Assembly (NCBI GenBank): GCA_934102215.1
Contig: CAKOSH010000003.1
Span: forward strand, 59,187-123,186
DNA from: an uncultured Bacilli bacterium
Lineage (GTDB): Bacteria > Bacillota_I > Bacilli_A > RF39 > UBA660
Length of the DNA stretch: 64,000 nucleotides
Direction: 5' to 3'
Position 1 is the first letter of the stretch, and every line of letters begins with the position of its first letter. Position numbers and translations under genes: made by a program. Shown piece after piece: positions 655 to 46,309 of this stretch. Below the pieces are notes generated by a model. The model saw only the letters and a list, made by a program, of their open reading frames with translations, was not told the DNA's origin and made no database searches.

Positions 655-1125
655 CTAATTATTAAATATAAATTCAGGAAGTAAAGTTCCTATAAATAAA
701 AGTATTACTAGAACTATCCAGTTAGTTAAAATATTCATAACCTTACTAAATGTATCATTATTATAAACCATCTTGCCATATACATTTTGAAGATTATATT
801 CATTAAGTACTCCATTATCATCTTTAACATATATATTGTATTTGTCTACTTTTTCTACTTTTCCAAGCTTTGTTGTATTTGTATATTTATATACTACATA
901 ATCATTCACATCTATTGCTTTTGTTTCTTTAAGTATAATAATATTATTCTTTTTGATATCTGGTTCATAAATATCACTATCTACTTTAATATACGTATAG
1001 CCTAATACGGTTGGAAACATATCATTATAAACTTTTCTTTTTGTATACATTGATACCATTATTGCAGTGAATGCTACTAAATATATAATTATTAATATTC
1101 TAATTACATTTAATATATTTTTCAT
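655..1125 (-). CDS. Membrane protein with signal-peptidase I (SipW/ER-type) architecture but non-canonical catalytic positions
   Basis: N-terminal TM, about 100 aa extracytoplasmic region, C-terminal TM. Segments align by eye to S26 boxes: SDIYEP vs SGSMEP, NNIIILKE vs GDLILVK, KDDNG vs KGDNN; the nucleophile Ser position reads Ile. Overlaps the secA start by 4 nt (ATGA). Confidence 0.35.
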   Translation of the reverse strand: MKNILNVIRILIIIYLVAFTAIMVSMYTKRKVYNDMFPTVLGYTYIKVDSDIYEPDIKKNNIIILKETKAIDVNDYVVYKYTNTTKLGKVEKVDKYNIYVKDDNGVLNEYNLQNVYGKMVYNNDTFSKVMNILTNWIVLVILLFIGTLLPEFIFNN

Positions 1126-3668
1126 TTTAAATACATTCCGCCTTCCAATTTAGGATCTATTGTTTTACCAAATTTTAAATCAGGATTAGTCGCATATAAT
1201 AAGAAATCTGCTTGTATTTTCGGATTTAGATTTATAAATTCAGTATTAGCTGCATGTTCATATTCTTTAAATGGATCCATTCCTGATAATGTATAATATG
1301 ATGTTTGTTTCTTTATATCTTCTAATTTATCTAAATGGTCTATCCAATAAGAATCAACTACATTTAACATATTCTTTCTTACTTTTTCATTATTATCTTC
1401 ACGAGATATACTTCCTTTTATTTTTGAAAGTACAAGTGAATTTATTGATTCTCTTAAACTTTCTTTACTTGTAGTATCTAGTCCTTTAGTATCAATTATT
1501 CCATCTAAACTACTACTTATTTCATCAAGTGAACAATTATTTACTAAGTAATCAGTATATGATGGAACTATTCTATCAAATAATGTTTTAACTTCTTTTG
1601 TATCAAGAATCATGTTACGTTGATTATACATTAAATCTTTTTGAGTAGTCATTACTTTACCATATTTTTCACTTGTAATTCTTACTTTTTCTTCAAATCC
1701 TTCTTGTGCTTTTTGACATCTATCTACTAGTTTAATTATATTTTTATTAGTGATTTCTTTGTCTTTATCTTTAACAAGAGAAGATGCTGCATTAAATAGT
1801 TCTTCGCTTCCTCTTGTTTTAACTAAATCATCTTCAAGTGAACTATAATATTTTGTTTTACCTGGTTCTCCTTGTCTACTTGCTCTACCACGAAGTTGAT
1901 AATCAATTCTTTCATTATTATTTCTTGATGTACCAATTACATAAAGACCTCCTAGTTCACGAACTCCTTCGCCTAGTCTTATATTACTACCACGACCAGC
2001 CATATTAGTAGCAACAGTTACTTTACCTTTCATACCAGCATTTTCAATAATACCAGCTTCATTTTCATTGTTAACTGCATTTAATAATTGATGTCTTACT
2101 CCTGCTTCTTCAAGCATTTTACTTATGATAACACTTTCTTCTACACTTGTTGTACCAATTAATACAGGTTGTAATGTTTCATTTGCTTTTAATACTTCTT
2201 CAACAATTGCTTTATATTTAGCATTCTTAGTAAGATAAACGCTTCCCTTTAAATCTTTTCTTATATTAGGAAGTCTACTTGGTACTTCATATGTAGGTAA
2301 ATTATATATCTCATTAAATTCTTCAATATTACTAGTACCTGTCATACCACTTATACCACTTTTATATCTTGACATAAAGTCTGGATATGTACATGTTGCA
2401 GTAGTAACTGTTGGACTTTGTATTGCTACATGATAACTTTTACCTTTTGAAAGTAACTCTTCTTTTGCTTCAAGTGCTTCATGTATACCATGGCCTTTTC
2501 TTCTTCCTGGCATAAGTCTTCCTGTACTTTCATCTATTAAAACTATTTCTTTACGAGGTTTCTTTCCAGGTTTTACTGGAACACTACTAAGGACATAATG
2601 TTCACCATTCTTATAATAGAATTTAGCAAGAATACAATTTTCTACTGCAACAGTGAAATTCATAAGATTTTCTTGTTCTTCTAAACTAAGTTTAGATACA
2701 TCTTTATTACCATATATTTTTCTATATAACTTTTCGCTAAATATTACTCTTTGGCTATCTTGATATAACAAACAATCTTCTTTGAATCTTATTTCTTTTT
2801 TCTTATCAAGCTCATCTTGCGGTTCTATTTTACATGTAAGAGTATCAGCAAGTAACATTGCTTTTCGATACATTTCTCTATTAAGCTCATTTCTTCTTTT
2901 GAATTCTTCTTCTCCAATATCGCTCTTCTTTTGACCTGGATATCCTCCATTTATAATAAGAGGTACAGTCGCATCATCTAAAAGAATACTATCAACTTCA
3001 TCTATAATCGCATAGTTAAATGCTTTACCATAGTTTTTATCATGTTTATCTGGTAAATTAAATACTCTGTCTTCTTTTTTAGTAACAGTATTATCAAGTA
3101 AATAATCAAATGCTAAAGTTTTAGCAGTACCATAAACTATATCACTCTTATATATTTCACGTCTTTCATCACGAGTCATTTTATCATTACCATAAACTAC
3201 TCCTGAAGTAAGTCCTAATAAATCATAAACAGGTTTTGTTTCTTCAAGATCTCTTCCAATAAGATAATCATTTGCTGTAATAACATGCACACCTTTTCCA
3301 TCTAAGGCATTTAAATATGCTTCAATTATTTGAATGAATGTTTTGCCTTCACCAGTTTTAACTTCAGCAATCGCACCTTCCCTCATCGCAAGAGCAGCTT
3401 CAATCTGAACATCATAAAGGCTTACACCAATAGCCCTTTCAGTTGCAAGATAACATAAAGCAGTAGCCTCTATTAATTTATCATCAACAGTACTTTTACC
3501 ACTTCTTATCTCATTCATTAAACTGATGCTTCTTCTTTTAATTTCAGCAGATGTTATATTACTTTCTTTGTAAGAATTAACTCTATTTTTAACTTCTCTA
3601 ACAAGTTCTCTAATTCTTTTTTGATTATTTCTTGTATAACTACCAAATATCTTATCTGTTAAACTCAT
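1122..3668 (-). CDS. secA: Preprotein translocase ATPase SecA (848 aa, lacks C-terminal Cys-rich zinc-finger tail)
   Basis: DEAD-like motor motifs (KTGEGKT, DEVDSILLDD), full-length SecA similarity. C-terminus ends ...KLEGGMYLK without a CxCxSGKKYKxCHG motif. RBS AGGTGA before ATG. Confidence 0.9.
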   Translation of the reverse strand: MSLTDKIFGSYTRNNQKRIRELVREVKNRVNSYKESNITSAEIKRRSISLMNEIRSGKSTVDDKLIEATALCYLATERAIGVSLYDVQIEAALAMREGAIAEVKTGEGKTFIQIIEAYLNALDGKGVHVITANDYLIGRDLEETKPVYDLLGLTSGVVYGNDKMTRDERREIYKSDIVYGTAKTLAFDYLLDNTVTKKEDRVFNLPDKHDKNYGKAFNYAIIDEVDSILLDDATVPLIINGGYPGQKKSDIGEEEFKRRNELNREMYRKAMLLADTLTCKIEPQDELDKKKEIRFKEDCLLYQDSQRVIFSEKLYRKIYGNKDVSKLSLEEQENLMNFTVAVENCILAKFYYKNGEHYVLSSVPVKPGKKPRKEIVLIDESTGRLMPGRRKGHGIHEALEAKEELLSKGKSYHVAIQSPTVTTATCTYPDFMSRYKSGISGMTGTSNIEEFNEIYNLPTYEVPSRLPNIRKDLKGSVYLTKNAKYKAIVEEVLKANETLQPVLIGTTSVEESVIISKMLEEAGVRHQLLNAVNNENEAGIIENAGMKGKVTVATNMAGRGSNIRLGEGVRELGGLYVIGTSRNNNERIDYQLRGRASRQGEPGKTKYYSSLEDDLVKTRGSEELFNAASSLVKDKDKEITNKNIIKLVDRCQKAQEGFEEKVRITSEKYGKVMTTQKDLMYNQRNMILDTKEVKTLFDRIVPSYTDYLVNNCSLDEISSSLDGIIDTKGLDTTSKESLRESINSLVLSKIKGSISREDNNEKVRKNMLNVVDSYWIDHLDKLEDIKKQTSYYTLSGMDPFKEYEHAANTEFINLNPKIQADFLLYATNPDLKFGKTIDPKLEGGMYLK

Positions 3669-3779: not shown

Positions 3780-5420
3780 TCAATTAGTTTTTAAAGTAAA
3801 GTATCCAGGGCTACTTGTGCCTCCATCTATACGAGCATATTCTTTATCGATATGATTAGCATCATATTTGGTTCCTGCACCGCCTACTAGGTTTGTACTA
3901 TCTTCAAACATACTAGTACTTTTAGTGGCCTTATTAGTATTAAATTTATCACTAGCATATATTGTTTTTAAATTAGCTGAATTATAAAACATACCACTCA
4001 TATATATTACATTGCTTGTATCAAAATTACTTAAATCTAAAAATGAAACTTGACTTTCTCTAAACATGCTAGTCATATCAGTTACATTTTTTGTATCAAA
4101 ACTGCTTAAATTTATTGTTGTTGCCTTACTTTCCCAAAACATTCCATTCATGTTTGTTACATTGCTTGTATCAAAGCTCCTTAAATCTAGCGTTGTAGCT
4201 CTACTAGCATAAAACATCATTCTCATATTTATTACTTTACTTGTATCAAAATTACTTAAATCTATTAATGTTACTTGACTACTTCCAAACATAAAATTCA
4301 TACTAGTTACATTACTGGTGTTAAAATTGTTTAAATCTAAAGATGAAACTTGGCTACCATAAAACATATAATCCATAGAGGTTACATTGCTAGTATCAAA
4401 ATTGCTTAAATTTAAAGATGCAGCCTGACTCTCATAAAACATTAATTCCATAGTGACTACATTGCTCGTATCAAAACTGCCTAAATCTAATATTGTCGCT
4501 TGGCTTTCTCTAAACATACCACTCATATTTGTTACATTGCTAGTATCAAAACTGCCTAAATCTAATATTGTCGCTTGGCTTTCCCAAAACATACCACTCA
4601 TATTTGTTACATTGCTAGTATCAAAACTGCTTAAATCTATTGTTGCAGCCCGACTTTCTTCAAACATATAACTCATAGACACAATAGGCATATTATTTAT
4701 ATATGTACATAACTTGCTTGTTACTGCATTAGTGCTTACTTCGTTAGTTAATTGAACTCCCCAACCAGTAGTCGCAATATTTTGCCAACCTGACGCACTG
4801 CCTTCTTGCATATATCTATAAGTGTATTGCCCATTTACATACTCTGCACCCTGTGTAAGATCGCCATCATATGTACAATATACAGGATTAATTGATGATT
4901 CATTTAAGCCAAGTTTTCCTTTAAATGCTTTATTTTTGTTATAATTTTGAAGCTTACCTGTATCAATAAATGTTATTTTGATTGTGTATTCTTGTGTATA
5001 ACCGGGTTTTATTGGAACATTTGTTAAAATTTTTCCTTCTTTAACTACTTTTTGCGATACTGAACTACATGTTCCATCTTCTGTGTTACTTGAATTCAAA
5101 TTTTTACATGTTCCTTCAATAACAAGTTCATTATTCGTAATTTCATTTACAAGTTCTTGCCACATAAGATTATAAATTACTTGTTTTGTTCCAGTGTTCT
5201 TTACTGATATTGTTTTAGTTATTGAGTCCCCTGGCATTGCTCCATCAAGTGATACTTCATTATCATCAGTAAATACTAATTCTAAATCACCTGTTGTTAT
5301 CTTGTTATATTTAGCAGTATCGTTTCCAATTATATTAAGCGAAAAAAATGCTAGTGAAACTCCAATTACTGCGAATAGTATTGATATCACTAGCAATATA
5401 TACATTTTCTTATCTTTCAT
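3780..5420 (-). CDS. Secreted protein: TasA/CalY(camelysin)-like N-terminal domain with SipW-cognate-type signal region fused to about 9 DUF285 (Mycoplasma-type, BspA-like) 26-aa repeats
   Basis: N-terminus LAFFSLNIIGNDTAKYNKITTGDLELVFTD..PGDSITKTISVKNTGT resembles TasA/CalY (AFFSD..AGTLDL..PGD..N.GSL). C-terminal half has repeats L(D/N)LSxFDTSNVTNMSGMFxESQ. ORF track starts at GTG (5429); ATG at 5418-5420 with AAGGAAG RBS preferred. Confidence 0.8.
   Translation of the reverse strand: MKDKKMYILLVISILFAVIGVSLAFFSLNIIGNDTAKYNKITTGDLELVFTDDNEVSLDGAMPGDSITKTISVKNTGTKQVIYNLMWQELVNEITNNELVIEGTCKNLNSSNTEDGTCSSVSQKVVKEGKILTNVPIKPGYTQEYTIKITFIDTGKLQNYNKNKAFKGKLGLNESSINPVYCTYDGDLTQGAEYVNGQYTYRYMQEGSASGWQNIATTGWGVQLTNEVSTNAVTSKLCTYINNMPIVSMSYMFEESRAATIDLSSFDTSNVTNMSGMFWESQATILDLGSFDTSNVTNMSGMFRESQATILDLGSFDTSNVVTMELMFYESQAASLNLSNFDTSNVTSMDYMFYGSQVSSLDLNNFNTSNVTSMNFMFGSSQVTLIDLSNFDTSKVINMRMMFYASRATTLDLRSFDTSNVTNMNGMFWESKATTINLSSFDTKNVTDMTSMFRESQVSFLDLSNFDTSNVIYMSGMFYNSANLKTIYASDKFNTNKATKSTSMFEDSTNLVGGAGTKYDANHIDKEYARIDGGTSSPGYFTLKTN
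3930..4640 (-). repeat. Array of about nine 78-bp (26-codon) tandem repeats encoding DUF285 units; two adjacent units nearly identical at DNA level
   Basis: Near-identical 78-bp units around 4489-4566 and 4567-4644. The spurious plus-strand ORF 4453..4671 shows the same periodicity (LLVSKLPKSNIVAWLS x3). Confidence 0.8.
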
Positions 5421-5442: not shown

Positions 5443-5482
5443 ATGATCATTATAGCAAATATTACCCCCCCCGCAAGCAAAC
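5443..5482 (-). promoter_or_regulatory. Conserved promoter cassette with G8 homopolymer in spacer (minus strand: TTGCTTGC-GGGGGGGG-TAATATT-TGCTATAAT)
   Basis: Extended -10 TGCTATAAT at 5449-5457, poly-C (plus strand) 5465-5472, TTGCTT -35-like box immediately upstream. Same cassette found upstream of two paralogous genes. Confidence 0.6.
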
Positions 5483-5499
5483 ATTTGTTCTTGTTTACC

Positions 5500-6438
5500 T
5501 TAATCTATTCTTCTACCAACAACAACCATTAGTTTTCCTTGGTGTTTTCCAAATAGGCATGTTTGAAGAACTATTATTTTATCATCCTGATTTAATTCTA
5601 CATCTGTCTTATAAATACTTCTATTTTTTAATCTATTGAAATGTTTTAACCAATCACTATCTTTTTTATATTTTAATTTCATATGTTCTTCTGTACCCAC
5701 TTTATCAGCAAGAACTATACTAAATATTTCATATTTTAAAGTCTCATTGTCAATCTTTAATTCAATGATTCTATGTTCATCAAAATATTCTTTCTTTAAA
5801 TAACCCTCTAATGTTTTAAATGGTGGATTATATTTTTTATTACTATGATTATGTCCGTATATATTAATCTGTTTACTATCTTTACTAACTCTATAATCCA
5901 TAAATGTACTTCCAATAGCACTTCTCTTTTTACTTAATGAATATTTTAAATAATATTGGTTATCTTTAGTTTAAACTACTGGAGTATATATTTCATCATC
6001 AATACTTAAAATTCCAATAACATCATTATTATTGTATTTTTTCTTTAAATCATTTATTTCTTCTTCTACTGTTTTCTTTGGAACTTCTATATCTGAAGCA
6101 GGTTTAACTAATTTACTTTCATTAATTTCTATTATTGTTTTTTCTTCTTCTTTTCTCTTTTGAATTAACAATACAAAACTAACTACCACTATTATAGATA
6201 AAATAACTATTAATATATTAAATATAAGATTTCTTTTGTTATCTTTTTTAATATCTTTTGAATTAGTTTTCTTTGTTGATTTATTATTTACTTTACTACT
6301 AGAAACTCTCTTTGCTGAACTTGCTTTTGTTTTGTTATTTGTTATCTTCTTTGCTGAAGATACTTTTGCTTTATTACTTGTAGTTTTCCTTAATGTAGTT
6401 ACTTTCTTAGTAGTATTATTCTTTTTATTATTTGTCAA
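5500..6438 (-). pseudogene. srtB: Sortase B (class B sortase) with an in-frame TAA stop at 5971-5973 replacing the Gln of the conserved PVVQGKDNEYY motif
   Basis: ORFs 5971..6438 and 5500..5901 are in the same frame separated only by TAA. Read-through gives ...IYTPVV*TKDNQYYLKYSL..GSTFMDYR..IYGHNH...LQTC...RR, matching SrtB signature blocks (DYPVVQGKDNEYYL, GSIFMDYR, TLxTC, Arg). Confidence 0.75.
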
Positions 6439-29668: not shown

Positions 29669-31003
29669 TTAGCCGATGCGGAAAGCTGGCGCAACGCCAC
29701 ATGTAGAATAAGCATCAATATTAGAACCGCCACCATTATTATTCACTTTAAAGAAAGATTTTTCACTGATAGACACAGCCGAACGAAGGCACCATGATGA
29801 AGTACTAGTTCTATTATTTTTTATCGCTCCATTAAAATTAGTTGTAGTTACGCCTAAATTTTTATAGTAATCTAATTGTTTTGTTATATCTCTTGCTTTA
29901 TCATATTTAAATCCAAATTTCTCTGGTTCTGTAACACTAACCAATGGTGAAACTGTTAACTTAGAAATTGATTCATTCATACTATTGGAACTTGATACTA
30001 CATCTGCCCTTACTTCTGCTGTGCTTAATAAATATAATTTATCTGTTGATGTAAAGTTTGTTGTGTCTTCGCTTCCAGGTCCTGATACTACTGTTGTATC
30101 TATTATTGCATTCTTTATTTCACTTGGTATTACATTATATATATCATTATTTACAAATGTTCTCATTGTTGTTGCTGGCCAGCCATCCTTATTCCAACCA
30201 TAATTATATTGTGTTCCATTATATTCTCCACTTGGATTCATATTATGTGTTGTTATGATATTTGCAAATTCTAGTACAAATCCACATGCTGTTTGTGAAA
30301 AACCTGTTGTACTACATTCACTTGGTGTTGAAGTATTTGCTACGCGAAGTGTATGTGTTCCATATGTTCCAAGATTTACTTCTTTTGTACTTCCAACTTT
30401 ATACTCACTTCCATACCCAGCTTTTACATTTGCTATAATTGTTGACCAACTATCAGTTGCAAAATCAGGAGCCTTATATTCTTCAATGCCAAGTACACCA
30501 TTGAATTGTTTACCTTGATTATAATTTTGGTCTGCATTTATTTCTTTAAATAATATTGTAAATGTATATTTATGAGTAATTCCTGATTCTATTGATATTT
30601 TCTTTGCGATTGTCATATCACTAATTGGTGATTGTGATATAGATTCACATGTTCCTTCAACTGTACCTGATGCATTTAATCTTTGACATGTCGCGCTTAA
30701 AACAAGTTCATCATTTGTAATTCCATTTGTTAGTGATTGCCAAATAACATTGTAATATGCATCTAATGTACCATTATTTTTTACTGATACTTCTTTTGTT
30801 GTTGACCATCCTGGTTTTATATATTGTGCATTTATTGCTGGTCCATCAGTATATGTAAGTTTTAGTGTTCCAGCTTCCACTATTACATCTTTTGCATTAT
30901 CATTTCCTTTTACAGCAGTACTAAAGTACGCATAAGAAAGACCTGTTGTTAAAAGCAATAACAATACAAGAAACGTTCCAATTAAAATTTTGTTATCTTT
31001 CAT
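29669..31003 (-). CDS. Secreted protein: TasA/CalY-like N-terminal domain plus Cys/Trp-rich C-terminal domain ending ...GVAPAFRIG (paralog of 10456..11682)
   Basis: LSYAYFSTAVKGNDNAKDVIVEAGTLKLTYTD..KPGWSTTKEVSVKNNGTLD N-domain; C-terminal blocks GFSQTACGFVLEFANIITTHNMN, GWPATTMRTFVNNDIYN, KLYLLSTAEV, QLDYYKNLGVTT shared with 10456..11682. Confidence 0.75.
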   Translation of the reverse strand: MKDNKILIGTFLVLLLLLTTGLSYAYFSTAVKGNDNAKDVIVEAGTLKLTYTDGPAINAQYIKPGWSTTKEVSVKNNGTLDAYYNVIWQSLTNGITNDELVLSATCQRLNASGTVEGTCESISQSPISDMTIAKKISIESGITHKYTFTILFKEINADQNYNQGKQFNGVLGIEEYKAPDFATDSWSTIIANVKAGYGSEYKVGSTKEVNLGTYGTHTLRVANTSTPSECSTTGFSQTACGFVLEFANIITTHNMNPSGEYNGTQYNYGWNKDGWPATTMRTFVNNDIYNVIPSEIKNAIIDTTVVSGPGSEDTTNFTSTDKLYLLSTAEVRADVVSSSNSMNESISKLTVSPLVSVTEPEKFGFKYDKARDITKQLDYYKNLGVTTTNFNGAIKNNRTSTSSWCLRSAVSISEKSFFKVNNNGGGSNIDAYSTCGVAPAFRIG

Positions 31004-31024
31004 AATTTATCTACCCTACTTTCA

Positions 31025-31064
31025 TTAGTAAGTATAGCATAAATTACCCCCCCGCAAGCGAACA
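31025..31064 (-). promoter_or_regulatory. Conserved promoter cassette with G7 tract (TCGCTTGC-GGGGGGG-TAATTTA-TGCTATACT)
   Basis: Extended -10 TGCTATACT at 31031-31039, poly-C 31047-31053 (plus strand); third copy of the cassette. Confidence 0.6.
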
Positions 31065-31312
31065 TTTATTCTTGTTTAAGAAGCAAAATGTAGATTGACG
31101 ATTTATTTGATCCAACTTTTGACGAATTATTTGGACCAATTCAAATATTTTTAACTTTTTGAAATTTTCTTAAAATTTAATTTTGCATATTAAAACATGG
31201 TTGATAATTGAATTTTTGCCTAGAGAATAATTAAATTTTCACTATGAAAAACTACCTCAAAATTGAATTTTACCTATTTGCATTGCATTTTTATATATGC
31301 TATTCTACATTC

Positions 31313-31550
31313 GAAGTGCCTGAGGCTAGGTGTCACCAATATTAATTTTCTGTATCCAGAGATCTAATGGAGGTGATGTTATATGAGTAAGAAAGATTTC
31401 TTAATAAGTTTTTTACTTGTTATTATATTCGTATTACTTTTTATAATAATTTCTTTAATTTTCGCAAATTAAAAAAATCACCTAACTCACTTTGTAGTTA
31501 GGTAAACATATTACATGTGATACCTAGCCTACAGGGGTCAGGTGCTTCAC
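31313..31550 (+). ncRNA. Structured mRNA: 5' element (31313-31337) and 3' element (31517-31550) form a roughly 24-bp long-range duplex around the small ORF; internal hairpin 31479-31501
   Basis: 5' GAAGUGCCUGA pairs with 3' UCAGGUGCUUC (11 bp, two G-U); 5' GGCUAGGUGUCAC pairs with 3' GUGAUACCUAGCC (13 bp). Candidate promoter TTGCAT-N17-TATTCT at about 31279-31306. Confidence 0.5.
31383..31472 (+). CDS. 29-aa hydrophobic peptide MSKKDFLISFLLVIIFVLLFIIISLIFAN (candidate type I toxin)
   Basis: Strong RBS GGAGGTG 7 nt before ATG; single TM helix with short charged N-terminus; flanked by complementary GC-rich 5' and 3' UTR elements. Confidence 0.5.
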   Translation: MSKKDFLISFLLVIIFVLLFIIISLIFAN

Positions 31551-31589
31551 TAATAATAGTTTATCATATTTAAATATACATTGTAAATA

Positions 31590-31622
31590 ATTTATCAAAA
31601 GAAAAAGCACTATTTCTAGTGC
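31590..31622 (-). terminator. Rho-independent terminator after the 31628..32035 gene (GCACTA-GAAA-TAGTGC plus TTTTTCTTTT)
   Basis: 6-bp stem, 4-nt loop, U-tract on minus strand. Confidence 0.55.
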
Positions 31623-31627
31623 AATAT

Positions 31628-32035
31628 TTATGCTATACAAGACATATCAAACTTAAATATTGTTCCTATTAAATTTAATATCAATGGGAAGAAGCAAATT
31701 ACTGCTAAAATGATTGCCATCTTTACACATTTATCAAATGCTTTTTTAAGAGCACTTGCATCTTTTGATATTACCGCTGGTATTAATTGTAACATACCAT
31801 TTACTATTGCAATAATAGCGCCACCTATTCTAACTACTGTAATGCCAAGTTTAACAAATTCAGTAAGTGTTGGACCAAGTATATCACTACAACTTTGCTC
31901 TCCATCTCCAAAACCAGTTATTGTTGGTGAATCAGCAAGTATATAAATATTGTTATTTGCTTTTTCTATACTGCTTGCATTTACATTTAAAATTCCTATT
32001 AAAAATAATAATATTATCATTAAAACTTTCTTCAT
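31628..32035 (-). CDS. Small secreted/membrane protein (signal peptide plus two hydrophobic helices)
   Basis: MKKVLMIILLFLIGILNVNASS signal; two hydrophobic segments; topology reminiscent of VirB2/TrbC-type pilins or bacteriocin-associated membrane proteins; no sequence match claimed. Confidence 0.35.
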   Translation of the reverse strand: MKKVLMIILLFLIGILNVNASSIEKANNNIYILADSPTITGFGDGEQSCSDILGPTLTEFVKLGITVVRIGGAIIAIVNGMLQLIPAVISKDASALKKAFDKCVKMAIILAVICFFPLILNLIGTIFKFDMSCIA

Positions 32036-32147
32036 AATATACCCCTTTAATGCGGTATATTATATCACTTTTAATATAATTTGTCAATTTACACTCTAAA
32101 GTATAATATATAGAAAAATAATGTCATTTATAGTATAATGTATGTAG

Positions 32148-32699
32148 GTGGTGTGCATTATGAATATTACATCTATAGATAATTCTACTTATAAAAATAG
32201 AGGTATGTTTCTTGAAAATATATTGAATGATTCAAACACATATTATAATAATATTGAAAAATGTTTAATATATAAAAAGCCTACACCTATTAAAGTACTT
32301 AATGTTAGTTATCCTACTAACAACTCACATTTGATAAATAAAGCAGTTTATTCTAGTATTTCAACACTTGATTATAATGGTATATATAGAGAAAAATATA
32401 TTGAATTTGATGCGAAAGAATGTCATTCTAAAACATCTTTTCCACTTAACAATGTTAAAGAACATCAAATACTTCATATAAGAAGAGTTATCAGGCAAAA
32501 AGGAATTGTGTTTTTGATAATATTTATGAATAATGAATTTTATTTGTTTAAAGGTGAAGATTTAATTGATTTTATAGATAATAATGAAAGGAAATCTATA
32601 GAATATAATTATATTAAGGAAAAAGGATATAAAATAAGTGAAAGTTATACACCAAGACTTAAGTATTTAGATGCAGTTGATAAGGCTTATTTTAATTAA
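32148..32699 (+). CDS. recU: Holliday junction resolvase RecU
   Basis: GMFLENILNDSNTYY..LIYKKPTPIKVLNVSYP..DYNGIYREKYIEFDAKEC..SFPLNNVKEHQILH matches RecU conserved blocks; classic recU-ponA arrangement. Confidence 0.85.
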   Translation: MVCIMNITSIDNSTYKNRGMFLENILNDSNTYYNNIEKCLIYKKPTPIKVLNVSYPTNNSHLINKAVYSSISTLDYNGIYREKYIEFDAKECHSKTSFPLNNVKEHQILHIRRVIRQKGIVFLIIFMNNEFYLFKGEDLIDFIDNNERKSIEYNYIKEKGYKISESYTPRLKYLDAVDKAYFN

Positions 32700-32712
32700 A
32701 GGAAGGAATTTT

Positions 32713-35472
32713 ATGAAAAAATTTAGAAAGAAAAAAGATAATGTTGATGGTGAAAGTACTCCTAAAAAGAAACGTAGATTTAGATTTGGATATTGGTTAC
32801 TTGTATTTATACTGACATGTGGTTTGCTTTGTTTTATGGCTGGTATTGGATTTTGCTACTACATTGTAAAGAGTGCTCCAGAGTTTGATAAAAATAATAT
32901 GTTTGAGAAAGAATCAACAAGAATATTTGATGCTGATGGAAATATATATGCCACTCTTGGTAGTGAAAAAAGAGAAAAAGTTAGTTATGATGAACTTCCT
33001 CAAGTATTAATTGATGCGATTATAGCAACTGAAGACTCAAGATTCTTTCAACATAATGGATTTGATGCTCCTAGATTCTTAAAAGCATCAATTAGTCAAG
33101 TACTTGGTCGTGGAGGTGGTGGTGCTTCTACCCTAACAATGCAACTTTCAAAATTAGAATACACAGATTTTGAAGATCAAGGTATAAAAGGTATCATTAG
33201 AAAATTTACTGATATATATATGGCTGTATTTAAACTTGAAAAAGCATTTACTAAAGAAGAAATAATTGAATATTATGTAAATATTCCTTGTATGGGTGGT
33301 AATATTTATGGAGTTCAACAAGCTAGTCAATATTATTTTGGTAAAGATGTTGGCGATATTAATTTAGTTGAAGCAGCAATGATAGCTGGTATGTTTCAAT
33401 CACCTAATGGATATAACGCTTATATAAATCCTAATGATGCAAATGCTAGAAAAAATACAGTTCTTTACTTAATGAAAAGACATGGATATATAACAGATGA
33501 TGAATATAAAGCTGGTACATCAGTTGAAATAAAGGATTTCTTAGATGAAGGTGTATCAAGTACAAATGAATATATTGGATTTATTGATACAGTTGTTGCT
33601 GATGTAATTGAGAAAACTGGTCATAATCCATATGATGTTCCAATGGACATATATACAACTATGAGAAAAGATAAACAAGATGTTATAAATAATTTTTATA
33701 AGACTTATAAATTTAAAGATAGTAAGATTCAAGTTGGCGTTGCGGTTGTTGATGTTAAAACTGGTGCTTTAATTGCTGTTGGTGCTGGTAGAAATAAGAA
33801 AGGCGCTAATACTCTTAACCTTGCTACATTTGATTATCAAACTAAGAGACACCCTGGTAGTACAATTAAACCTATTCTTGATTATGGTCCTGCTATTGAA
33901 TATGAAAACTTAAGTACTTATGGTCCATTTATTGATGAAAAAACTCCTTATGGAAGTGGATACATGAGAAACTTTAATGGTAAATATAAGGGATTTATGA
34001 CAATGAGAGATTGCTTAAAGAACTCTGTTAACACATGTGCTTTACAAGCATTTAATATGACTACTAATGAACAAAAGATGGAATTTATGACAAATCTTGG
34101 TGTACAACCTGAAGAAGGAATTACTAAACTTCCTCAATCATATTCAGTTGGAGCATTTAATACTGCTACTCCTGAAATACTAGCTGGTGCTTATGCAGCA
34201 TTTGGTAATGGTGGATATTACACTAAACCTTATTCTTTTACTAAAATTGTATATCGTGAAAGTGAAGAAGAATATACTCCTGAAATTGAAAGAAAAAGAG
34301 TTATGAAAGAGCAAACTGCTTACATATTATCAACTGTATTAACTGGGGTTACTACTTCAAGACTTAAAGTAAGTGGTACACAAGTTGCTACTAAAACTGG
34401 TACTAGTAGTTATGATACAGCTCTTCTTAAAACATATGGTCTTAGTAGTCAAGTAATACCTGATTCATGGACATCAAGTTATACAACTGATTATGCTATG
34501 GCAATATGGTATGGTTATCCAGAGGGTCTTACAAAAGACAATGTTAAAAATAAATATTATATGAGAATGGATCATGCTAGTAACGAAAGATTAAAAATAC
34601 AAGCTGCTCTTGGAAATAAAATATATGAAAAGAATGCCAAATTTAAAAATCCGGGTGGACTTACTACTACAGAAGTTGAACTTGAAACAATACCTGCTCA
34701 AAAACCAAGTGCTTATACACCAAGCAAACTTAAAAATAGTTTCATATTTATAAGTGGTACAGAACCTAGTGAAGTATCAAATAGATTTTCTAAACTTACT
34801 GATCCTACTCCTGGAACATATTCAATTACTGGTAAGAGATTGACAGTTAGTTGGAATTCTCCTGGTACTCCTGATGCGATTAGTGAAACATATTTAACTG
34901 ATTATTTCAATAAAGGATATACAATATGGGCTGAAGATTATTTAAAAAAGAGAATTAGTTATAATAATTCTAATATTGGAGAATTTGGATTTGCTGTTTA
35001 CTTAACTTCAGGTACAAGTTCTACGTATGTTGGATTTACTAAAGATACTTCAATGGAAATAGATTTAAATAAATATCGTGGAACATTTGATGGTGTTATT
35101 ATTAAGAGTATGTATTCTATATTTAAGAATAATGCTTCTGATGGAATAAAGATATCATTTAATGTTACTGGTAATGAGGATAAAGTATTTGATGTTTCAA
35201 TAAATGATTCTGCAAAGACACTTAATTTAAATGATAAATATAGTTATCTTGATAGTTCTTCAGTAAGTACGATTATGTTAAATGGTGTTGATGTTAAAAA
35301 TGTAGTTAACGATTTAACAGTTAGTTATTCTTCAATAAGTGGTAATGGTGGTCCTACAATTAATAACTTTACTGCTACTGCTGGAACTTATAAAATCACT
35401 TACACTGTTACATTTAAATATGAAGGAGAAACATATAGTAAAAAAGTTACACAAACTGTGACTGTGAAATAA
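32713..35472 (+). CDS. ponA: Class A penicillin-binding protein (PBP1A/1B; glycosyltransferase plus transpeptidase) with about 250-aa C-terminal Ig-like extension
   Basis: GT51 motifs (EDSRFFQHNGFD, GGSTLTMQL), transpeptidase STIKP, SxN, KTG(T). AAGGAAGG RBS 7 nt before ATG at 32713; ORF track start is upstream. Confidence 0.9.
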   Translation: MKKFRKKKDNVDGESTPKKKRRFRFGYWLLVFILTCGLLCFMAGIGFCYYIVKSAPEFDKNNMFEKESTRIFDADGNIYATLGSEKREKVSYDELPQVLIDAIIATEDSRFFQHNGFDAPRFLKASISQVLGRGGGGASTLTMQLSKLEYTDFEDQGIKGIIRKFTDIYMAVFKLEKAFTKEEIIEYYVNIPCMGGNIYGVQQASQYYFGKDVGDINLVEAAMIAGMFQSPNGYNAYINPNDANARKNTVLYLMKRHGYITDDEYKAGTSVEIKDFLDEGVSSTNEYIGFIDTVVADVIEKTGHNPYDVPMDIYTTMRKDKQDVINNFYKTYKFKDSKIQVGVAVVDVKTGALIAVGAGRNKKGANTLNLATFDYQTKRHPGSTIKPILDYGPAIEYENLSTYGPFIDEKTPYGSGYMRNFNGKYKGFMTMRDCLKNSVNTCALQAFNMTTNEQKMEFMTNLGVQPEEGITKLPQSYSVGAFNTATPEILAGAYAAFGNGGYYTKPYSFTKIVYRESEEEYTPEIERKRVMKEQTAYILSTVLTGVTTSRLKVSGTQVATKTGTSSYDTALLKTYGLSSQVIPDSWTSSYTTDYAMAIWYGYPEGLTKDNVKNKYYMRMDHASNERLKIQAALGNKIYEKNAKFKNPGGLTTTEVELETIPAQKPSAYTPSKLKNSFIFISGTEPSEVSNRFSKLTDPTPGTYSITGKRLTVSWNSPGTPDAISETYLTDYFNKGYTIWAEDYLKKRISYNNSNIGEFGFAVYLTSGTSSTYVGFTKDTSMEIDLNKYRGTFDGVIIKSMYSIFKNNASDGIKISFNVTGNEDKVFDVSINDSAKTLNLNDKYSYLDSSSVSTIMLNGVDVKNVVNDLTVSYSSISGNGGPTINNFTATAGTYKITYTVTFKYEGETYSKKVTQTVTVK

Positions 35473-46203: not shown

Positions 46204-46309
46204 TTTATTCCTCCTTCAATAAGACTCGCTTTTAAGGCAAGAATTTTTCATCTTTTAAATAACCTTTTCAATGCGGTTGTAGAGAAAGATTTCTACAAAC
46301 ATGGATATT
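46204..46309 (-). promoter_or_regulatory. rplU leader region with sigma-A-like promoter TTGACA-N17-TAAAAT and a stem-loop (possible L21 leader)
   Basis: Minus strand TTGACAGAACCACGTATTTATGCTAAAAT followed by inverted repeat TGTAGAGAAAGATTTCTACA. Confidence 0.4.

Follow-up and report, generated by a model that had tools for sequence, protein, structure and literature searches.

The DNA analyzed here is a stretch of 64,000 nucleotides (nt), hereafter the window, taken from contig CAKOSH010000003.1 (positions 59,187 to 123,186, assembly GCA_934102215.1) of an uncultured Bacilli bacterium (RF39, UBA660). It belongs to a lineage of low-GC, ~1.5-Mb gut Bacillota, relatives of which are labelled 'Clostridium sp. 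CAG:1000' or 'Tenericutes bacterium'. The subject of this work is a putative promoter cassette with a poly-G tract, which is present in the window in three copies (Table 1), each of them ahead of a gene for a secreted protein with a TasA-like N-terminus. In the earlier note on this DNA the third copy was described as carrying a G7 tract and a TATACT -10 hexamer. This copy is indeed present, but on the minus strand, as the note had quoted the reverse complement of positions 31025-31064. In gene orientation, positions 31071..31001 read GAATAAATGTTC GCTTGC GGGGGGG TAATTTATGC TATACT TACTAATGAAAGTAGGGTAGATAAATT ATG, and the ATG (31003..31001, minus strand) opens a 444-aa open reading frame (ORF) ~28 nt downstream of the cassette. 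In each copy, the start codon follows the module at a distance of 70-75 nt and the G tract at 42-43 nt. Copy 1 begins 9 nt past the stop codon of the upstream gene and copy 2 begins 5 nt past the stop codon of glyS (11757..11755).

Within the window the core of the cassette has three matches, each of them on the minus strand (5466, 11725 and 31047), where 0.00 were expected (100 shuffles). The three cassettes are also the sole sites of runs of seven or more G's (0.19 expected), and no G or C run of at least six occurs outside them in this window of 25.9% GC. Direct reading gave tract lengths of 8, 8 and 7 for copies 1, 2 and 3, respectively, which bears out the difference between 7 and 8 pointed out previously.

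Table 1 Coordinates of the cassette copies, their parts and the neighbouring features (positions in the window).
Feature	Position	Strand	Remarks
Cassette copy 3, whole (GAATAAATGTTC-GCTTGC-G7-TAATTTATGC-TATACT)	31031..31071	-	direct reading; alignment with 9 other copies
Palindrome position of copy 3, 12 bp (GAATAAATGTTC)	31060..31071	-	1 mismatch to the family consensus GAAC-N4-GTTC
TCGCTTGC, copy 3	31061..31054	-	direct reading
Candidate -35 hexamer TTGCGG, copy 3	31052..31057	-	3/6 match to TTGACA; putative assignment
Poly-G tract G7, copy 3	31053..31047	-	direct reading; spacer 15 nt
TAATTTA, copy 3	31046..31040	-	direct reading
Extended -10 TGC-TATACT, copy 3	31031..31039 (TGC 31039..31037, TATACT 31036..31031)	-	TGCTATAMT invariant in all copies
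Gene driven by copy 3, 444-aa secreted protein	29669..31003	-	signal-anchor helix, TasA-like beta-sandwich N-domain (~residues 40-175), C-terminal DUF6273
Cassette copy 1 (GAACAAATGTTT-GCTTGC-G8-TAATATTTGC-TATAAT)	5449..5490	-	drives 546-aa protein (3780..5420)
Cassette copy 2 (GAGCATTTGTTT-GCTTGC-G8-TAATATATGC-TATAAT)	11708..11749	-	drives 408-aa paralogue (10456..11682)
Two direct repeats, 21 bp	31095-31115, 31119-31139	+	in gene orientation TTGGTCCAAATAATTCGTCAA / TTGGATCAAATAAATCGTCAA
Type I toxin-like mRNA (neighbour, outside the cassette)	31306..31556	+	29-aa hydrophobic ORF 31384-31473
Convergent antisense small RNA unit	promoter-like site 31587..31558, intrinsic terminator 31505..31478	-	overlaps the toxin-like mRNA

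Public collections were scanned with the pattern GCTTGC-G5-N(0-10)-TAATNTNTGCTATA. Among species-representative genomes four copies were found, all within CP091739.1 ('MAG: Clostridium sp.', 1.53 Mb), and a metagenome collection contributed 12 loci; further cassette copies came from a look-up of homologues of the driven proteins. Altogether, the same module stands ahead of 24 further surface-protein genes in related public assemblies (the loci are given below by their L numbers). In ~0.5 Mb of related DNA plus the window, 31 out of 31 runs of six or more G's lie inside cassettes. The family consensus is aaGAACAAATGTTC-GCTTGC-G(n)-TAATwTwTGC-TATAmT. The pattern had no match in IMG/VR and a phage origin of the cassette was rejected for this reason.

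An alignment of ten diverse copies revealed an invariant block with TGTT at one end and the TATA of the -10 hexamer at the other. Conservation collapses just downstream, where the leaders are of several unrelated types. RNAalifold applied to these ten copies gave a consensus of -2.3 kcal/mol with no covarying pairs, and Rfam searches returned nothing at any cassette (permissive thresholds on 30000-33000, gathering thresholds on the whole window). Since conservation ends at the -10 and no conserved RNA fold accompanies it, the cassette is best described as a promoter signal and not an RNA element, in line with the shared promoter module that had been proposed. Judging from its sequence, this DNA promoter would be composed of TTGCGG, a spacer of 15-17 nt holding the G run, and an extended -10. 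The last two bases of TTGCGG are the first two G's of the tract, and tracts of G7, G8 and G9 would give spacers of 15, 16 and 17 nt, respectively. TGCTATAMT is invariant in all cassette copies and occurs also at other promoter-like sites in the window. A simple consensus promoter scan did not call the cassette, because its -35 match is only 3/6. The -35/-10 assignment is supported by the promoters of orthologous genes in a sister species, which in equal genomic contexts (after trmK and after pcrA) read TTGTAG or TTGTCC-17-TGTGCTATACT, as well as by another promoter-like site of the window, TTGTAA-16-TGTGCTATAAT. The sister-species promoters have neither a G run nor the palindrome that precedes the tract in the cassettes (see below). 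The G tract is therefore an added feature, and in this lineage tract and palindrome thus take the place of the upstream half of an otherwise ordinary promoter. Transcription of the copy-3 gene would be expected to start about 7 nt after the -10, near 31024.

Two further observations concern the family as a whole. A variant cassette at 9940-9960 of L032 reads TTTGCTT-G8-TAAT; the GC before the tract is missing, so that TTGCTT lies 18 nt from the -10 and there is no TTGCGG. By eye, this variant is located just downstream of an apparent tRNA gene. The metagenome OIZL01, a short-read one, contains 10 cassettes, and its contigs L006, L007, L011, L014 and L016 stop 3-25 nt past a cassette, because the repeated promoter and the conserved 5' ends of the genes break the assembly. 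Cassette-driven genes are systematically fragmented in short-read data.

The tract length was compared in 27 copies (public assemblies except CP091739.1, the window counted), of which 21 have G8, four have G9 and two have G7. CP091739.1 (L002-L005) is the sole complete relative genome, and in it MKDNKNTIWNN... is read instead of MKDNKILFGT.... Frameshifts at A runs interrupt the paralogue ORFs of this genome, a sign of long-read homopolymer errors that makes its poly-G lengths unreliable; the tract lengths found there (G6, G9, G6 and G8) were discarded. At the rpsB/tsf locus, where the orthologues of copy 3 reside, the tract is G7 in the window and in the identical contig L001, G8 in L013, and G9 in L018-L021. 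The latter derive from four samples and two assemblers, and encode a protein 98% identical to that of the window. Aligned over 5,072 nt, the window and L018 diverge by 1.14% and show four indel events, and of six long homopolymer runs the G tract alone changed. The identical copy-3 protein is encoded on nine contigs, and the tract was read in one locus of them. At the glyS locus (orthologues of copy 2) the window has G8, L050 has G7 (99% identical protein) and L051/52 have G8 (83% orthologue), and at a locus adjacent to lexA all representatives (L006 and L046-48) have G8.

Three samples have G9 at the rpsB locus and G8 at the lexA-adjacent locus, which means that tract length is locus-specific, and the reproducibility of the lengths across assemblies identifies them as polymorphism and not artefact. 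In the assembled genomes, then, a G7-G9 homopolymer placed within the core promoter, between TTGC and TAATwTwTGC-TATAMT, is demonstrably polymorphic between close strains at orthologous loci, and at both the rpsB and the glyS locus it differs on near-identical flanks. These consensus lengths also provide evidence for an elevated mutability of the tract and for selection on its length, whereas rapid switching within a population is a more tentative possibility. The slippage among tracts that had been anticipated was thus upheld in part: lengths do vary at orthologous loci (G7/G8/G9 and G8/G7), but G8 in 21/27 copies and the reproducibility of lengths across samples temper the idea of free slippage.

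Proteins encoded downstream of the cassettes were characterized as well. The 444-aa product of the copy-3 gene matches Pfam PF12389 with 38.2 bits (cut-off 22.5) at residues 14-82, covering profile positions 15-78 of 196 only, and PF19789 with 52.8 bits. NCBIfam TIGR04090 reached 17.5 bits against a cut-off of 60, and a PDB sequence search listed TasA at E = 0.3. In an AlphaFold model (26 homologues) the mean predicted local distance difference test score (pLDDT) was 57.8, and the N-domain beta-sandwich (~40-175), with 70-90, was the sole confident part. The top Foldseek match in the PDB was the TasA fibre 8aur_A (E 8.1e-5, probability 1.00, with low TM-scores of 0.22/0.38); the archaeal TasA-like filaments 7pnb and 7ueg were also listed, behind meprin matches. 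On this evidence, 'TasA-like' is a reasonable name for the N-domain, and the designation of the gene as TasA-like paralogue 3 holds to this extent (PF12389 above its cut-off and the Foldseek match to 8aur); for the protein as a whole it is unproven.

Exactly three TasA-like paralogues were found in the window with tblastn, each with a cassette. The products of copies 2 and 3 combine a camelysin/TasA N-terminal Pfam match above threshold with a C-terminal DUF6273, and in the product of copy 1 (546 aa) the same N-terminus is fused to DUF285/PARCEL repeats. In L012 a cassette precedes the gene of an 803-aa DUF285 + DUF6273 protein with a different N-terminus. Wherever the sequence downstream of a cassette can be read, the gene there encodes a secreted protein marked by a TasA-like N-terminus, by DUF285/PARCEL repeats or by DUF6273, i.e. 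what stands under the putative control of the cassettes is a surface-protein multigene family. The protein family is very large (more than 7,400 matches, with over 7,000 homologues from public metagenomes), and some of the homologues are named 'CalY family protein' by NCBI.

Directly upstream of GCTTGC lies a GAAC-N4-GTTC/T palindrome, the omission of which left the earlier description of the cassette incomplete. The palindrome is exact in 16 of the 26 scorable copies. In copy 3 it reads GAAT-AAAT-GTTC, and the three cassettes of the window have 1-2 mismatches each, with no exact match anywhere in the window. If transcription starts 7 nt after the -10, the palindrome centre lies at about -41.5 with G7, at -42.5 with G8 and at -43.5 with G9. 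The G8 position, 30 nt ahead of the -10, corresponds to class II activator geometry. In ~200 kb of non-redundant related DNA the motif is confined to cassettes, except for two coding sites in the sister species. Several copies have a degenerate left half-site (AAAC, GAAT, GAGC and GGCC), and in the copy-2 orthologues it is essentially lost, with the rest of the cassette kept; the palindrome may therefore be dispensable for some copies.

GAAC-N4-GTTC/T is the LexA box (Cheo box) of Bacillus/Clostridium (PMC4234289). The lineage encodes a LexA protein (L006 8908-9531, Pfam LexA_DNA_bind and Peptidase_S24), which is 51% identical to B. subtilis LexA and, as read from the sequence, differs from it in the recognition-helix region. 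In L006 and L046-48 a cassette adjoins a PAP2-lexA gene pair. The lexA promoter of the clade is conserved at ten loci in two genomic contexts (L006 9532-9600 on the minus strand, and upstream of lexA in L033-L043) and has the form TTTACA-ATCATTTGTTTGTATG-TTATTAT, with ATAATAT in the CAG:1000-like loci L033-L038. GAAC-N4-GTTY was not found at these ten loci, the spacer holding only AATC-ATTT-GTTT (CTTT in L043). The reading of the palindrome as a LexA box is thus not supported, since the clade's own lexA promoter is without the box, and it is kept below as a minority alternative. The spacer of the lexA promoter has a symmetry of ACAA-N4-TTGT or TACAA-N8-TTGTA, as against the canonical GAAC-N4-GTTC, and the operator of the clade may have diverged from the canonical box. 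GTTCGCT of the cassette also resembles the half-site of B. subtilis SinR, GTTCTYT. A tblastn search with SinR gave no match in the window and the fetched loci, and neither did MutS and MutL fragments in the fetched DNA, a small fraction of the genome in each case, which makes these negatives uninformative.

The reading that we favour, with moderate confidence, is that the cassette is a lineage-specific, multi-copy contingency (phase- or level-variable) promoter of the housekeeping-sigma type, with an extended -10, tuned by its G tract. The G7-G9 homopolymer would be part of both the -35 hexamer and the spacer (TTGCGG, 15/16/17 nt, TATAMT). Slipped-strand mispairing would lead to the gain or loss of one G, and with it the distances of the -35 hexamer and of the palindrome from the -10 would each change by 1 bp. 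Through the altered distances a paralogue would acquire a transcription level of its own, irrespective of the other members, with each module serving one member of the secreted surface/fibre family (TasA-like N-domain and/or PARCEL/DUF285 and/or DUF6273). The effect of tract length on expression, as well as the rate and reversibility of switching, are what we infer here. Surface and fibre products are the usual cargo of contingency loci, which counts in favour of such a promoter. Copy 3 of the window would most likely be in a low or OFF state, with its coding sequence intact, because it has the shortest tract seen (G7, 15-nt spacer) and a point change in its palindrome. The 17-nt spacer of the G9 allele equals the spacing of the sister-species promoters. 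A more elaborate version, which we regard as doubtful, is a portable contingency promoter in at least 10 copies per genome, made of an SOS-type (LexA) or other dimeric-regulator operator and a slippage-prone G tract, where the paralogues would be switched singly by the tract and gated jointly by one regulator.

Several points weigh against a contingency promoter. Most of the copies (21/27) have G8, including all ten cassettes of OIZL01, and the four G9 copies represent a single lineage and a single locus. The lengths recur in independent samples (G9 in four and G8 in three), so the consensus state is stable between hosts. Moreover, G7-G9 is short for a hypermutable tract, and extended -10 promoters tolerate a poor -35 and poor spacing, so a shift of 1 bp may matter little.

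One alternative is a static promoter, in which the G run is a fixed spacer or a recognition element, G8 is the functional length, and G7 and G9 are neutral or slightly deleterious indels or mark decaying copies. The prevalence of G8 (overall and, with 10/10, in one metagenome) and the recurrence of identical lengths in independent samples speak for it, as does the 16-nt spacer of the other promoter-like site in the window, which equals the G8 spacer; also, the G7 copy of the window has a mutated palindrome, which is consistent with decay. We nevertheless consider a static promoter rather unlikely, given that both loci comparable between near-identical strains differ in tract length and that the genes following the G7 and G9 alleles have intact coding sequences. 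In addition, G/C runs are otherwise fully avoided in this genome of 26% GC, yet they are kept in every cassette, and the sister species manages without a G run. That the length differences arose in sequencing or assembly is highly improbable. Homopolymers are error-prone, and CP091739.1 is clearly affected, but four independent assemblies made with two assemblers agree on G9 at one locus, three of those samples have G8 elsewhere, and A/T runs of at least seven in the same contigs agree between strains. The interpretation of the conserved block as a transcribed RNA element (a leader or a riboswitch) is scarcely credible: read-through into copies 1 and 2 is conceivable, as they start 9 and 5 nt past an upstream stop codon, but the block has no conserved structure, covariation or Rfam match, a canonical extended -10 marks the limit of its conservation, and the leaders downstream are of unrelated types.

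Two alternatives concern the palindrome and could act on top of the tract. In one, which refines the contingency promoter and which we entertain tentatively, a dimeric regulator bound at about -42 would replace a good -35, and the G tract would set the distance from the activator to the -10. The class II geometry of the palindrome (centre at -42.5 with G8, 30 nt ahead of the -10), the weak -35 match (3/6), the joint occurrence of palindrome and tract, both of which are missing from the sister-species promoters, and the precedent of Bordetella fim (PMC1891110) all point to such an activator site. Against it stand the degenerate left half-site of several copies, its near-complete loss in copy-2 orthologues that keep the rest of the cassette, and the fact that a candidate gene for the regulator was not identified. 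In the other, the palindrome is a LexA (SOS) operator, and the surface family would be LexA-repressed and induced by DNA damage. This is improbable in our view. The GAAC-N4-GTTC/T form (PMC4234289) is exact in 16/26 cassettes, LexA is encoded by the lineage and a cassette lies beside the PAP2-lexA pair in L006 and L046-48; however, the box is missing from the clade's lexA promoter at ten loci, the recognition-helix region of its LexA is unlike that of B. subtilis, and the window cassettes have 1-2 mismatches each and no exact box.

By analogy, the closest known counterpart of the proposed contingency promoter is the fimbrial promoter family of Bordetella pertussis/bronchiseptica (fim2, fim3, fimX and fimN, with their 'fim box' and 'C-stretch'). 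In the promoter element common to fim2, fim3 and fimX, a C-stretch separates the activator region from the -10 (PMC1891110). In fimX a single-base difference (C7 vs C8) changed the transcript 3.8-fold (PMC1891110), and in a B. pertussis mutant a one-C deletion in the fim3 promoter accompanied the loss of Fim3-dependent autoagglutination (PMC10172299). In Bordetella, single-base length differences between strains accompany changed transcription (PMC1891110, PMC10172299). Both systems comprise paralogous surface-filament genes, each with its own copy of a promoter element, and in both an upstream regulator-binding region (here the candidate palindrome) is separated from the -10 by a G/C homopolymer. 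They differ in that the Bordetella tracts are longer (C7-C22), the activator is BvgA, the host is a Gram-negative pathogen and the products are chaperone-usher fimbriae, in contrast to the G7-9 tracts, the Firmicute-type extended -10 and the TasA-fold/PARCEL/DUF6273 cargo found here.

In Neisseria meningitidis porA/opc and Haemophilus influenzae hif a repeat tract is located in the -35/-10 spacer, and its length sets the spacing and the expression level. These are single loci with no adjacent palindrome, and their switching has been demonstrated experimentally. The cassette described here differs from them in being present in at least 10 copies with an adjacent palindrome, and its switching is inferred. 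The promoter-spacer repeat case of H. influenzae is summarised in PMC9187656. The nearest case from a Gram-positive gut bacterium is the sortase-pilus of Bifidobacterium breve, where G-tract slippage controls surface appendage genes and length distributions were measured in vivo (PMC9187656); further G-tracts in promoter spacers are mentioned by its authors without data (PMC9187656). B. breve is likewise a Gram-positive gut commensal with a G tract at surface-protein genes, but its tract (G10-G12) lies inside a gene, where it acts as a frameshift switch, and not in a promoter, and in that high-GC organism G runs are not compositionally exceptional. As for the LexA operator of Bacillus/Clostridium, its exact form is present in most cassette copies, whereas the clade's lexA promoter is without an exact box, and the resemblance may be coincidental.

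No description of the cassette system was found in the literature on promoter poly-G switches in Firmicutes or gut metagenomes. Surface variation in gut commensals relies mainly on invertible promoters (Bacteroides, C. difficile), and in Bifidobacterium on G-tracts inside genes. If true, the control of many genes by copies of one promoter cassette whose spacer holds a homopolymer would be a mechanism different from those known in gut commensals, and would entail strain-level and within-strain surface heterogeneity in a prevalent, unstudied gut group. Should operator and tract indeed act jointly, this would amount to a combinatorial surface variation of the Bordetella fim kind in a Gram-positive commensal. 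As cassettes break short-read assemblies and long-read assemblies miscount tracts, caution is needed in reading tract states from public metagenome-assembled genomes of this group.

Copy 3 is preceded by an intergenic region (31004-31627) that had been noted for its length of 600 bp and for two 21-bp direct repeats proposed as an activator binding site. Both repeats exist, the second one ending at 31139 and not at 31140. They are identical at 18/21 positions with a period of 24 nt (2 matches vs 0.02 expected) and end 21 nt upstream of the palindrome (gap 31094..31074). The repeat unit TTGnnCCAAATAnnTCGTCAA (gene orientation) is kept in the orthologues L013 and L018-21, and also by cassettes of the same subfamily in another genomic context, where they follow a gene for a pcrA/uvrD-type helicase (L003 has two units, L010 a single one). 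It is absent from copies 1 and 2 of the window and from most other cassettes. The repeats are thus an accessory element of one cassette subfamily and may have a regulatory role. Depending on the copy, 20, 17 or 5 nt separate their conserved end, GTCAATCTA, from the palindrome, and this variable distance argues against a strictly positioned activator site; an activator role of the repeats is, on this evidence, somewhat doubtful.

The intergenic region is not empty, as it is mostly occupied by a previously unmentioned module resembling type I toxin-antitoxin systems. A Shine-Dalgarno sequence, GGAGGTG, stands ahead of the ORF for the 29-aa hydrophobic peptide MSKKDFLISFLLVIIFVLLFIIISLIFAN. The 5' end of the toxin-like mRNA (31313-31337) pairs with its 3' end (31521-31549), with a minimum free energy of -74.5 kcal/mol (z = -6.9). 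The promoter-like site of the antisense unit is TTTACA-18-TAAACT. No Rfam family corresponds to the module, which is kept in L013 and L018-21.

The same region is bracketed in its entirety by the arms of a perfect 13-nt inverted repeat (31032-31044 / 31626-31638), for which ~0.1 would be expected by chance (an estimate). The -10 region of the cassette, ATTTATGCTATAC, recurs in this way in inverted orientation 581 nt away, where the second arm lies at the 3' end of a 135-aa gene. The inverted repeat is conserved in close orthologues. An invertible promoter (inverton) was considered and rejected, as the orientation is the same in L013, L018-L021 and L001 and there is no adjacent recombinase gene.

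Other features of the window lie near copy 1. Downstream of paralogue 1 (655-3668, minus strand), a second SecA-type ATPase of 848 aa with the full SecA domain set is encoded, as well as a 156-aa membrane protein (ORF 655..1125) that reaches 18.8 bits with the SipW model NF046067, against a cut-off of 190. The SecA paralogue and the 156-aa protein may work together as a pair dedicated to exporting and processing the TasA-like proteins. A 133-aa ORF immediately ahead of cassette 1 (5500-5901, minus strand) matches the C-terminal half of a class B sortase only (profile positions 113-234 of 235). The 155-aa ORF before it (5971-6438, minus strand) has a lysine/serine-rich N-terminal region, a membrane helix and, by eye, an apparent N-terminal part of a sortase. 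The sortase gene is therefore apparently split or frameshifted. Finally, of all Rfam families only the ribosomal protein L21 leader (RF00559, 45.3 bits), located at 46212-46288 on the minus strand, passes its gathering threshold anywhere in the window.

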